From a virus: a DNA stretch of 64,000 nt. Numbering within the stretch: the stretch's first letter is position 1; each line of letters starts with the position of its first letter. Below the pieces are notes generated by a model that saw nothing but the letters and a program-made list of their open reading frames with translations, ran no database searches and was not told the origin of the DNA. Below are positions 16,397 through 41,390 of the stretch, one piece after another. The stretch lies in the IMG/VR virus record IMGVR_UViG_3300033143_004671, positions 1-64,000 of that record. One strand, 5' to 3'. A program made the position numbers and the translations under genes.

Positions 16397-17560
16397 ATGA
16401 TCAAGGAACGCAAACGCCGATCTATATCCAAGGACCTCAAACGCGAGTCGCTTCCCCCGTCGAGGTATTTTCTAAGTACAGGTAGCACGTTACTCGATCT
16501 CGCTATCTCGGACCGATACCCCGGTGGTGTGGGCAGTGGACGAACTACCCAATTGATCGGGGATAACTCCACGGCCAAGACTGTACTGATGAAAGAGATT
16601 CTAGGCTCGGCACAAAGACAAGGCGGGTTTGCAGTGGAGGAGGAAGCCGAATACACTCCCGACTTTGAACGTGCTGAACTGTTCGGACTAGACGTGGGCG
16701 ATTGGCGTGACGGGGTTTTCGACTCTGATCTTCCTCTAATCGACGCTCTCGACCACGCCGACGCCTACGTCTACCGAAACCCGTCCTCACTCGAGAATGT
16801 GTTTGACGACGAGATAGCACAGATCGTCAATCTCTCCCGTGGGCAGTGGGCGGATGTGACTCTCAAAAAGAATAACAAGGGCGATACTGTCCGCAAGGTC
16901 AAGATGGAGGAGGTCGATGCAATACCCAAACCTATCGCCATAGGCATAGACACGCTGACGGCCTTACCCTCCATCGCTGAACTAAACAGGACACTAAATG
17001 AGAAGTCCTACAATATGGAGCGAGCGAAAGTGATGTCCGCTGGGTTCAGGAAGTACATCAAGCCCATCGGCTCTGAAGACATCACTATCGTCGCTGTAGA
17101 CCATATCCGATCCAATGTGGGTATCTCATTTGGTAAGGACTGGACGGTGAGTGGGGGGAAGGCAATGCAGCAATATGCTAGTACGCGAGTATTCCTCAAG
17201 CACACGGAGACACTCAAGAACAAGCATGGGGTAGACTATGGGGTGAAGATACACTTCAAGGTGGTTAAGAACAAGCTCGCCCCACCATTCCGCGAAGGTG
17301 ATTTCTACGTAATCTTCGACTACGGCATCGACGATATACGATCTAACATCGAGTGGTTGAGGAATCAAAAAGTAGATTCCAAGCTCAAAGTTAAAGGAGC
17401 ATGGTTCAACTGGGGAGAAGAGCGGCTAGGGCAAGGAATCGAGAAGGCCATAACCAACGCCGAAGAGATGGGTGAGACGATGGTGAGGGCGATTGAGAAG
17501 GAAGTCGTCAGGGTATGGCGAATCATACACGAGCCGACTAAGAGAAGGAGAAAGAGATGA
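16397..17560 (+). CDS. recA: RecA/UvsX recombinase
   Basis: STGS.LLDLAI, GDNSTAKT Walker A, IDTL.AL, SGGKAM..YAS.R, VVKNKLAPPFR. Confidence 0.9.
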   Translation: MIKERKRRSISKDLKRESLPPSRYFLSTGSTLLDLAISDRYPGGVGSGRTTQLIGDNSTAKTVLMKEILGSAQRQGGFAVEEEAEYTPDFERAELFGLDVGDWRDGVFDSDLPLIDALDHADAYVYRNPSSLENVFDDEIAQIVNLSRGQWADVTLKKNNKGDTVRKVKMEEVDAIPKPIAIGIDTLTALPSIAELNRTLNEKSYNMERAKVMSAGFRKYIKPIGSEDITIVAVDHIRSNVGISFGKDWTVSGGKAMQQYASTRVFLKHTETLKNKHGVDYGVKIHFKVVKNKLAPPFREGDFYVIFDYGIDDIRSNIEWLRNQKVDSKLKVKGAWFNWGEERLGQGIEKAITNAEEMGETMVRAIEKEVVRVWRIIHEPTKRRRKR

Positions 17561-18126
17561 GTGATCTAGTAGTGGCCTTCGATCCGGGCAAGGATGGCTT
17601 TATCTCTTACCTTCACGACGGGGAGACGGGTAGTTGGCCTATGCCTACCGTCAAGATCGGCAAGGGAGGGAAGAGGGACTATGACATCACTGCCCTACGT
17701 ACGATCCTCGATGAAATAGCCGATACAAACCACGACATAGATCTTGCTGTAATCGAAAAGCAGCAAGCTATGCCTGGTCAGGGAGTCACATCTATGTTCT
17801 CGATAGGTATGGGCTATGGTCTGCTGCTTGGCTTGGTTACCGGTTTGCGTCTACCCTATGCTGTAGTTCACCCGAGAACGTGGAAAAAGATCATGCTTAG
17901 GGATGTGCCCGGTGACGACCAAAAAGGCAGGTCGATCATAGCAGCGGGCAGGCTTTTTCCTAACGTCGATCTTAGGAAGAGCGAACGAGCTAGGAAGCCT
18001 CACGACGGTAAGGCCGAGTCATTGCTGCTCGCATGGTATGGATTGCATCACCTATTACTCGTACCCGAAAAGAAGCCGAAGAGGCAGAGAAGGACGATTC
18101 CAGGAGGTGGGTTTGGTTATTGGTAG
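17557..18126 (+). CDS. RuvC-like Holliday junction resolvase
   Basis: AFDPGKDG, IEKQQAMPGQGVTSMF, V.PRTWK, DGKAESLL. Confidence 0.85.
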   Translation: MSDLVVAFDPGKDGFISYLHDGETGSWPMPTVKIGKGGKRDYDITALRTILDEIADTNHDIDLAVIEKQQAMPGQGVTSMFSIGMGYGLLLGLVTGLRLPYAVVHPRTWKKIMLRDVPGDDQKGRSIIAAGRLFPNVDLRKSERARKPHDGKAESLLLAWYGLHHLLLVPEKKPKRQRRTIPGGGFGYW

Positions 18127-18157
18127 GTATAATGGTATGACAGGAAAGGATAGGAAG

Positions 18158-18685
18158 ATGACAAAGAAAACATGGAAAGATTATGTGAGACAAGCTGTCG
18201 AGAAACGCCCCAATGCTGAAAGGGCCGTCAAGATCAAGTATGCTATCAAGTTGCTCCACAAAAACGCCGAGGTAAGAGAGCCTTGGATGAACCAAATGGA
18301 GTACCGTGCGGTCCAAGCCGAGGTAGACGCACTGGAAGCAGCAATCAGACGGGACGCAAAAGACAAGATTGAAGCGGCCGTCGTCAGCAATCCAAGCTGG
18401 AGAGGGGCCGAAGTCATAGACGCTTCCTCGCCTCTCATAGCGGCAACGATCTTCGATACCTGGATAGTGCGGGGCAAGCCGATTATGGCTTGTACGGGTA
18501 CCGAGTTGAAAGCCGAGGCTGTGATTTCCCGTAAGCAGGCCTCGGGTAAACTCAAAAACGCGGAGTTCTACGAATGGCTGTCAGAGGAGGCGGGGGAAGA
18601 TATTGTTGGTGAGGCAGTATCGACCGAGGATGCTGCTATGCGTTGGTGCGAGATTGCGGGAGTCGCTGAGGGCTCCCTTGTTTGA
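18158..18685 (+). CDS. Hypothetical protein, first gene of the array-containing transcript
   Basis: TATAAT at 18128, AGGAAG RBS, ATG at 18158. Stop lies 6 nt before array unit 1. Confidence 0.65.
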   Translation: MTKKTWKDYVRQAVEKRPNAERAVKIKYAIKLLHKNAEVREPWMNQMEYRAVQAEVDALEAAIRRDAKDKIEAAVVSNPSWRGAEVIDASSPLIAATIFDTWIVRGKPIMACTGTELKAEAVISRKQASGKLKNAEFYEWLSEEAGEDIVGEAVSTEDAAMRWCEIAGVAEGSLV

Positions 18686-18691
18686 TATATT

Positions 18692-19165
18692 GGAAGGCGG
18701 ACGATCATCCCTTGTCACCCTGACGCCGCATGCCGCCTTCCTTTAAGTTGAACGTGGATGGACCAATCGCATAGTGTCACCCTTATAATGACTGTCCATC
18801 CATTTGATAATTGAATAGTAGTGTGGACCAGGTCATGTTTGTCACCCATACAGTCAGTGTCCACACTACAAACTAAAATGGATGTGGGCCATAGTAAGGT
18901 TGTCACCCTATGTACTCATGCCCACATCCACGAAACTCAAAGTGTGGACCATATATCGTCTGTCACCCTTTAGAAGATTGTCCCCACTACAAACTAGGAT
19001 GGACCAAACACCTTTTGTCACCCTTACGCGGCGTGTCCATCCCATAAACCAAAAGAGGAAGGCCGAACCTGTTGTGTCACCCAGAGAAACGTTGCCTTCC
19101 TCACAAAACCAATGCGAAGCGGGCCACGACCCGACTGTCACCCATTGCTGGCTTGCCCGCTTCGC
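18692..19165 (+). ncRNA. TIGR-type stem-loop dual-spacer guide-RNA array, 8 units
   Basis: Each unit is stem + CCA (CCG or ACG in two units) + 9-nt spacer A + TGTCACCC(T/A) + 9-nt spacer B + TG + complementary stem, with a period of about 56-63 nt. Confidence 0.88.
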
Positions 19166-19186
19166 CTGACATTGAAAGGAAGAGCG

Positions 19187-20083
19187 ATGAAACAGGAAAG
19201 AGACCAATCCACCCCCGACACCCAAGACCCCGACATCTCAATCCACCTCATTCAGGACCGCTACCGCCACCGAGTAGCGGCACAGGATGCGAGAAAGAGA
19301 ATCGACAGCCAAACAGGGGCCATGGTTCGCAGATACCTTGGCTACCAAAACGATCTTCCTGAAAAAGAGACCAAAAGGATCGCCGAGGTAGCCTCGGAAA
19401 CGATTAAGGCCATCCAAAAGGGAACCGAAGTACCCGAGGCAGGACAAGTCATTCTCGATTCGCCTGCTTGCGTCATGTTCATCCTCGCGGCAAAGGAATC
19501 GAGGCTGCCCTATATCAATCACGAAAGGCAATGTGAGAAGGAGATGGTCTCCATGGCTAAGAAGCTCCCCGTATATAAATGGGTTGAGTCGGTCAAGGGA
19601 CTGGGTGCGGTTGGGCTGGCCGTTCTCGTTGGTGAGTGTGGTGATCTGTCGAAGTATGCCAATCCTGCAAAGCTGTGGAAGCGCCTCGGATTGGCCGTCA
19701 TGGATGGACGCAGGCAGGGCGACCCTGGGAGCAACGCGACGGCCGAGGATTGGATCGAGCATGGGTACTGTAAACGTAGGCGGTCAGCGTGCTGGACGAT
19801 TCGAGAGCCTCTACTCAAGAATGATAATGAGTACAGGACATTATTGCTCACCAGGAAGCAATTCGAGTATGATAAGGCGACCAAGATTGGATTAGTGGTC
19901 GCAACGACAAGTAAAAAGACGGCCGACAATTGGGAAAAGGTTGGCTTGCCCAGACCGGAAGTCGTGAAAAAGGTCGATACGGAAATCCACCGTTCAGTAG
20001 GGCACATCCACAATCTCGCTGCTCGGTATGTTGAAAAGAGAATGATTCGGGATCTGTGGCGTGCCTGGAGAGATGTAGCGTAA
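19187..20083 (+). CDS. Nop-domain / IS110-related RNA-binding protein without nuclease domain (TasA-type)
   Basis: Coiled coil, then WVESVKGLG...LAVLVGECGDLSKY.NPAKLWKRLGL and H.HN.AARY.EK..IRDLW. No DEDD RuvC or HNH motif. Starts 21 nt after the array. Confidence 0.85.
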   Translation: MKQERDQSTPDTQDPDISIHLIQDRYRHRVAAQDARKRIDSQTGAMVRRYLGYQNDLPEKETKRIAEVASETIKAIQKGTEVPEAGQVILDSPACVMFILAAKESRLPYINHERQCEKEMVSMAKKLPVYKWVESVKGLGAVGLAVLVGECGDLSKYANPAKLWKRLGLAVMDGRRQGDPGSNATAEDWIEHGYCKRRRSACWTIREPLLKNDNEYRTLLLTRKQFEYDKATKIGLVVATTSKKTADNWEKVGLPRPEVVKKVDTEIHRSVGHIHNLAARYVEKRMIRDLWRAWRDVA

Positions 20084-41180: not shown

Positions 41181-41390
41181 ATGACCAAACACTACATCAA
41201 TAATGAGACGCTCCGCAACTGGATTACACGATACCAGCACCTCGATTATTACGCTGACCTGACAGCCAAGTGCCGTAGGGCAATCCTGACCTCCTACACG
41301 GCATACAGTAGGAACATGACCACCAAGACGGCAAAGGAACTCACCGAGGAATTGATCGAGCAATTCCCCAATGAACTCATGTATGGATAA
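41181..41390 (+). CDS. Hypothetical protein
   Basis: GAAAGGAAGG RBS. Confidence 0.6.
   Translation: MTKHYINNETLRNWITRYQHLDYYADLTAKCRRAILTSYTAYSRNMTTKTAKELTEELIEQFPNELMYG

Follow-up and report, generated by a model that had tools for sequence, protein, structure and literature searches.

The window considered here, the whole 64-kb stretch of DNA that was analysed, is the first 64 kb of a virus record of 87,209 bp. Among genes annotated through Pfam and PHROG as phage replication and recombination genes it presents a stem-loop TIGR array of eight tigRNA units, which lies between a conserved gene, referred to below as the companion, and tasA, the gene for a nuclease-free TIGR-associated protein. 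The array is on the + strand, as are all adjoining genes. No close cultured phage was found for the record, the best DNA polymerase matches being only ~25% identical. The features of the locus are as follows.

18137–18685 (open reading frame listed as 18038–18685), + strand: conserved companion gene, ~182 aa, directly 5′ of the array, found by jackhmmer and profile search
18692–19166, + strand: stem-loop TIGR array of eight tigRNA units, from unit anatomy, covarying stems and folds
18692–18741, + strand: hairpin U1, box C-like motif ACG
18754–18803, + strand: hairpin U2, box C-like motif CCA
18818–18869, + strand: hairpin U3, box C-like motif CCA
18879–18930, + strand: hairpin U4, box C-like motif CCA
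18941–18988, + strand: hairpin U5, box C-like motif CCA
18997–19042, + strand: hairpin U6, box C-like motif CCA
19055–19102, + strand: hairpin U7, box C-like motif CCG
19114–19165, + strand: hairpin U8, box C-like motif CCA
19187–20083, + strand: tasA, encoding a 298-aa nuclease-free TIGR-associated protein (coiled coil and Nop domain), from PDB match, AlphaFold and Foldseek
19201–19241, + strand: possible degenerate ninth unit, GAGA-CCA-9 nt-CGACACCC-A-9 nt-CA-TCTC, read from the sequence inside the 5′ end of tasA

Anatomy of the array and its Tas protein

All eight units share one layout, in which a stem is followed by CCA (ACG in U1, CCG in U7), a 9-nt spacer A, TGTCACCC with a further A or T, a 9-nt spacer B, TG and again the stem. 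The loop between the spacers, TGTCACCC+W, is 9 nt long in every unit, and of the 11 copies of TGTCACCC in the window (2.05 expected) eight lie inside the array. The units match the pattern CCA-9-TG..CCW-9-TG and have 13 invariant columns, which are confined to the boxes, the loop and one adjacent G-C pair of the stem. The stems, of 8–11 bp, vary in sequence from unit to unit with their pairing kept: 88.6% of cells are paired when standard pairs are counted and nine of 11 pairs are changed on both sides, a level of pairing that none of 500 shuffles reaches and for which slid registers give 34–44%. A hairpin fold was obtained for every unit individually, and an Rfam search of the array returned no family. 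The order of box C (CCA), spacer and box D (UG) is compatible with the + strand alone, and from this order together with the co-orientation of array and tasA we infer that the array is read from the + strand.

The possible ninth unit at the start of tasA has a stem of only 4 bp and no stable fold (z = 0.10) and is thus probably a relic. In one of the related loci (L001, ~1603–1646) an intact-looking unit spans the start codon of tasA. The linkers between the units of our array (18742–19113) are 8–14 nt long and A-rich with a recurring AAAC(T/C) word, and no CUU processing motif of the kind reported for other stem-loop arrays is apparent where the stems begin. The spacers have a GC content of 46% against 51% in their surroundings, about 5–6 points lower; across 21 related loci the difference is likewise ~6 points (55.6% against 61.6% in the surrounding DNA). 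Either AT-richer targets or a constraint that limits internal pairing could account for the low GC of the spacers.

A scan for promoters and terminators gave signal at the level of shuffled sequence. One terminator-like hairpin (18658–18677, + strand), with TTGTTTGATA after it, extends over the final codons of the companion and lies 15 nt 5′ of the first unit, so that transcription of the array may either start at a site of its own or come from read-through.

The tasA reading frame begins 21 nt past the last hairpin. Its product gives a weak Transposase_20 match in Pfam, a match to phrog_4285 (E 1.7e-15) and, in a phmmer search of PDB sequences, a match over residues 115–219 to the TIGR-TasR complex 9mty (E 2.9e-6); 241 homologues are present in the protein collection. 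The AlphaFold model, built with 34 homologues, has a mean pLDDT of 94.6 and presents an all-helical N-terminal coiled coil, with helices only in residues 15–124, followed by a Nop-type domain. A Foldseek search of the PDB with this model places TasR and TasH complexes at all of ranks 1–11 with a probability of 1.00. Within residues 1–124 of the model neither the RNase H-like sheet nor the HNH motif is present, and no nuclease family was matched in Pfam or the PHROGs. Since it contains no RNase H-like or HNH module, the predicted structure identifies the protein as a TasA rather than a TasR or TasH. The sequence-only reading of this DNA had described TIGR-type dual-spacer guides beside a Tas protein without a nuclease domain, and the AlphaFold, Foldseek and PDB results agree with it. 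A TIGR dual-spacer array adjoining a Tas protein without a nuclease domain would be expected to direct RNA-guided binding without cutting.

Relatives of the system and a conserved companion gene

Arrays of the same unit design adjoin TasA homologues in Rhizobium phage RHph_X2_25, in two contigs of IMG/VR and at many of 35 loci from bacterial genomes, which are mostly prophages of Hyphomicrobiales with further examples from Planctomycetota, Actinomycetota, Myxococcota and others. In RHph_X2_25 (MW960032.1, 24265–25766) the related TIGR-TasA system is annotated only as hypothetical proteins. The closest TasA homologues in isolates, as at the locus of Aminobacter anthyllidis (L008, 2024–2152), are accompanied by units with a longer loop of 13–14 nt in which a mini-hairpin is possible; units of this type were missed by the detector, which was set for a 9-nt loop. 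The prophages of Ochrobactrum sp. CM-21-5 (L015) and Brucella daejeonensis (L017) have three guides that are identical in both spacers, and their other guides differ. As some guides are shared and others not, guides seem to be gained or lost unit by unit.

A jackhmmer analysis of the + strand reading frames of 38 tasA loci showed that relatives of the companion adjoin tasA or the array in ~30 of them, in very different taxa. These relatives, which directly precede tasA or the array, occur in L001–L003 and L011–L040 and cover phages and prophages from several phyla. With the window copy left out of the profile, the reading frame at 18137–18685 was the only one matched among 826 six-frame reading frames of the phage (E 5.6e-11). 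The companion matches no Pfam, PHROG or PDB sequence; its model is all-helical with a pLDDT of 82.8 and has no match in a Foldseek search of the PDB. The RuvC-like resolvase (17557–18126), UvsX and the SbcC-like gene of the window were also considered as parts of the system and were rejected, being absent from the loci of the relatives, including those that carry the companion.

TIGR systems are described in the accessible text of PMC12045711 as generally single-protein, and no mention of the companion was found there or in the accessible part of the preprint 10.64898/2026.09.09.750476. On its sequence conservation the companion may be a second, hitherto missing component of this TIGR-TasA clade, for example a maturation or effector partner. 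In a two-protein effector of this kind the companion would provide the output module or the maturation factor, and TasA would act as an RNA-guided recruiter, for example in processing, recombination or exclusion, rather than as a plain roadblock. The adjacency of the two genes in ~30 of 38 loci at which the other neighbours in the window are not conserved would fit such a pair, as would the statement, in the part of 10.64898/2026.09.09.750476 available, that the processing factor of stem-loop tigRNAs has not been identified; yet the companion has no recognizable catalytic or DNA-binding fold, synteny alone is no proof of joint function, and MbTasA repressed in Escherichia coli with only Tas and tigRNA described as supplied in the same part of that preprint. 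We regard the two-protein effector as doubtful, and consider that the conserved companion may add some activity beyond simple occlusion.

Content and targets of the rebuilt guides

In TIGR-Tas systems the two spacers pair with adjacent parts of the target, A on one strand and B on the other, and cleavage, which follows a box C-5 rule, leaves 8-nt 3′ overhangs (PMC12045711). By inference, the 18-bp target is obtained by joining spacer A to the reverse complement of spacer B, because under the box C-5 rule only this order gives 8-nt 3′ overhangs and the other order would give 5′ overhangs. The rebuilt 18-mers do not depend on whether the third letter of box C pairs, since it is the box D-proximal spacer ends that form the junction. 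The joining order used in the sequence-only reading is thus borne out by the overhang geometry; that reading had also placed the eight units and their spacers correctly and rebuilt the 18-mers correctly, and the joined strings it quoted for U1–U7 were reproduced letter for letter.

From these strings it had concluded that the targets resemble promoters and translation starts. The reverse strand reads TATAAT-GACCT-ATG in U2 and TACAGT-CAGAAC-ATG in U3 and begins with ATG in U4; U7 reads AACCTG-TTGACG-TTTCTC with TTGACG lying across the A/B junction, U6 contains ..GC-GAAAGG-TGTT, U1 ..GC-AAGGG-ATG and U5 TTAGAAG-ATG, and U8 has none of the ATG, −10, −35 or Shine–Dalgarno (SD) words. At least one such word is present in 87.5% of the real 18-mers, in 87.5–89% of mispaired A/B combinations and in 79% of random 18-mers of the genome. 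Re-pairing of the A and B spacers in 3000 permutations gave P = 0.50 for ATG, P = 1.0 for a −10 box within one mismatch, P = 0.56 for a −35 box within one mismatch and P = 0.58 for SD-like tetramers, and all re-pairing P values for the ATG, −10, −35 and SD counts lie at 0.25–1.0. The sole nominal signal comes from the pattern TANNNT followed by ATG, found in two of the eight units, which has P = 0.11 against re-pairings and P = 0.006 against genomic 18-mers, both post hoc and uncorrected. The motif criteria are loose, TACAGT for instance being two positions away from TATAAT. The 139 guides parsed from 21 related loci likewise showed no motif enrichment over mispaired controls, nor any palindromic or complementary relation of spacers A and B. 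Because motif content equals that of the mispaired controls both here and in the 139 related guides, the promoter- and ATG-like look of the targets is a chance product of short, loose motifs. The sequence-only reading had itself named motif content no higher than in shuffled pairs as the outcome that would count against it, and this is the outcome obtained.

Across all 87,209 bp of the phage itself neither junction order gave a match at zero or one mismatch; the claim that the window contains no full 18-bp self-match is accordingly true and extends to the whole record. For the order rc(B)+A, which the 3′ overhang geometry also excludes, there was no phage match with two mismatches or fewer. 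The best near-match in the phage belongs to U3:

41304–41321, − strand: 16/18 match to the U3 target (spacer A 9/9, spacer B 7/9), inside the open reading frame 41181–41390

A match of 16/18 was reached by three of 240 mispaired or wrong-geometry controls and by one of 400 shuffled controls (0.25–1.25% each), and one such match among 8–16 real queries is expected 2–18% of the time. At these control rates the U3 site is unremarkable, and we treat it as a chance match.

IMG/VR was scanned for exact 18-mers of U1–U7 and a metagenome collection for U2 only, such exact scans missing any target with tolerated mismatches. In IMG/VR there were no exact matches for U2, U3, U4 and U7. U1 had a single exact match, inside a 558-aa open frame of a viral contig of 66% GC that is matched by no other guide, and U6 a single exact match inside a reading frame of a 32.8-kb provirus of 65% GC, in which the other guides have no match at up to three mismatches. 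U5 had six exact matches, every one in an unrelated context and five in contigs of 31–35% GC; the ten matches of U2 in the metagenome scan are similarly all in unrelated contexts, nine in AT-rich contigs. A scan of 401 sampled Pseudomonadota genomes, of low power and carried out for U7 only, gave six matches with one mismatch or fewer in unrelated places, five inside long open frames. When 161 guides were compared with 1.12 Mb of fetched DNA, nine independent two-mismatch matches were found against one for a reversed control and ~3.7 expected; the nine lie in unrelated places, eight of them inside reading frames, and two matches of one guide are at non-homologous sites. We read this excess as an effect of composition or codon structure, not as targeting. 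There was thus no convincing target in the phage, in IMG/VR (U1–U7), in one metagenome scan (U2) or in 401 bacterial genomes (U7).

The guides of the relatives behave in the same way towards the DNA that carries them. None of 53 guides, among them 45 from six related prophage arrays and six of this phage, had a match with one mismatch or fewer in ~600 kb of fetched DNA, a set that includes the neighbourhood of each array up to ~40 kb a side, and matches of the same guides at two to three mismatches were at control level. For RHph_X2_25, comparison of six of its guides with the complete 68.8-kb genome gave nothing at up to three mismatches. Four lysogen guides, three of which are those common to the Ochrobactrum and Brucella prophages, were compared with the genomes of their own hosts; none has a match at zero or one mismatch, and for the common guides this applies to either host. 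The guides of this clade are therefore directed neither against the phage that carries them nor, in the few instances compared, against the lysogen chromosome, which fits foreign targets.

These results bear directly on the proposal that the guides are specifically aimed at promoters and translation starts of the host or of rival phages, as a natural multiplex CRISPRi-like shut-off. A TasA does repress transcription when guided to a gene, as reported in 10.64898/2026.09.09.750476, the U2 and U3 targets place a TA...T hexamer 5–6 nt before ATG as in leaderless starts, U7 spells TTGACG across its junction, and the spacers have a slightly higher AT content than their genomes, a composition that would fit AT-richer targets, intergenic or foreign DNA for example, and leaves room for a regulatory-region bias. 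However, no motif class exceeds the mispaired controls in this array or in the 139 related guides, the TA...T plus ATG pattern was picked out post hoc and has P = 0.11 against re-pairings, and the mapped matches are intragenic (the 16/18 site of U3, the exact IMG/VR matches of U1 and U6, and five of the six one-mismatch matches of U7). The published repression moreover used intragenic sites, so that promoters are not required (10.64898/2026.09.09.750476). We judge an aim at promoters and start sites to be improbable. It is quite improbable that the guides form a host-takeover or anti-rival programme directed, through TasA and possibly the companion, at transcription and translation starts in uncollected DNA (for example through the leaderless-type −10 and ATG of U2 and U3); if true, such a start-region programme would give a nuclease-free TIGR system its first natural target logic.

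Self-regulation, in which imperfect sites such as that of U3 in the block of tiny genes would let the guides tune genes of the phage, is hardly credible: spacer A is perfect there and both mismatches fall outside the seed positions reported in PMC12045711, but such a site exists for one guide of eight, is intragenic and is of a quality that control 18-mers reach at the rates given above, and the six related prophage arrays and RHph_X2_25 are also without self-matches.

Proposed mode of action and comparison with known systems

Taking the array, the Tas protein and the searches together, we consider it probable that the locus is a genuine stem-loop TIGR-TasA system of an 87-kb phage, with guides on foreign DNA and a promoter look that arose by chance. 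In such a system a + strand transcript running through the array, with or next to tasA, would be trimmed to eight hairpin tigRNAs, each of which would load one TasA dimer. The two 9-nt spacers would pair with opposite strands of a single 18-bp site (spacer A plus the reverse complement of B), which TasA would bind, unwind and bend without cutting, giving a block of transcription or replication. The guides would be aimed at non-self DNA, of a rival mobile element or of the host, that is not in the collections searched; a non-self aim is the most likely because the sites are not found in the phage's own genome, and the failure of the relatives' guides to match their own DNA likewise points to foreign DNA.

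The preprint 10.64898/2026.09.09.750476 reports that another TasA (MbTasA) and dead TasR proteins (CsTasR among them) bind DNA and, with reprogrammed guides, repress transcription of reporters and of cysG. CRISPRi-like repression by TasA is thus already known, and the locus adds no new idea in that respect. Where the sequence-only reading had proposed a CRISPRi-like repressor, the kind of machine stands, but its aim at promoters and start sites is unsupported, as the words are at chance level and the searches described above found no target. The natural targets of TIGR-Tas are a stated open question in PMC12045711 and in the preprint, the latter noting that 18 nt yield too many false matches for most of them to be determined. 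Targets readable as promoters would have answered this question; the resemblance is instead due to chance. The analysis yields the annotation of a TasA system with eight guides and their predicted 18-bp sites, carried in a phage record of 87 kb, and negative evidence, over this phage and eight relatives, that such guides are not aimed at the genome of their own phage or lysogen.

The closest known systems are the stem-loop TIGR-TasA systems (PlTasA from a Peromyscus leucopus gut contig, BlTasA and MbTasA; Faure et al. 2025, PMC12045711; Xu et al. 2026, preprint 10.64898/2026.09.09.750476; preprint 10.64898/2026.08.11.744272). With these the present system has in common a nuclease-free Tas protein that combines a Nop domain with a coiled coil, spacers separated by a 9-nt loop, stems that vary between units, an array directly beside and perhaps partly inside tas, and carriage by a phage. 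It differs from them in its identity of only ~16–20% to the solved Tas proteins, in belonging to a clade whose members come mostly from alphaproteobacterial phages and prophages and have a conserved companion gene, and in its A-rich, AAAC-like linkers and the lack of an evident CUU at the stem base.

The best sequence and fold matches of this TasA are with the dual-repeat TIGR-TasR and TasH systems (TaTasR, PDB 9mty; SpTasH, 9w04). The tandem-spacer recognition of both strands, the box C/D anchors and the dimeric Nop scaffold are likenesses to these systems. TasR and TasH, however, have RuvC or HNH nuclease domains and cut DNA, and their arrays consist of conserved edge and loop repeats cut into 36-nt RNAs, in contrast to the variable hairpins seen here.

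RNA-guided binding without cleavage, able to block transcription or interfere with mobile elements, is also a feature of dCas9 CRISPRi and of naturally non-cutting CRISPR systems (type IV, type V-M and Cas12k). Their proteins and RNAs are unrelated to those of the present system, whose guide is divided into two 9-nt halves that address opposite strands and which needs no PAM and has no adaptation genes. The bridge RNA of IS110 and the archaeal box C/D sRNPs offer a different likeness, namely a Nop-type RNA-binding domain (to which the weak Transposase_20 match corresponds) and guide pairs framed by box C/D-like motifs. Here, in contrast, there is no DEDD transposase domain, no donor loop and no fibrillarin or L7Ae partner, and the RNAs are arrayed hairpins.

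Among the relatives, Rhizobium phage RHph_X2_25 offers a practical model, as a cultured temperate phage with a known host, Sinorhizobium americanum X2_25, and a related system. In its genome the system is situated between the repressor C and XRE genes, and three of its units lie inside the coding region of tasA (L003, 2630–2775).
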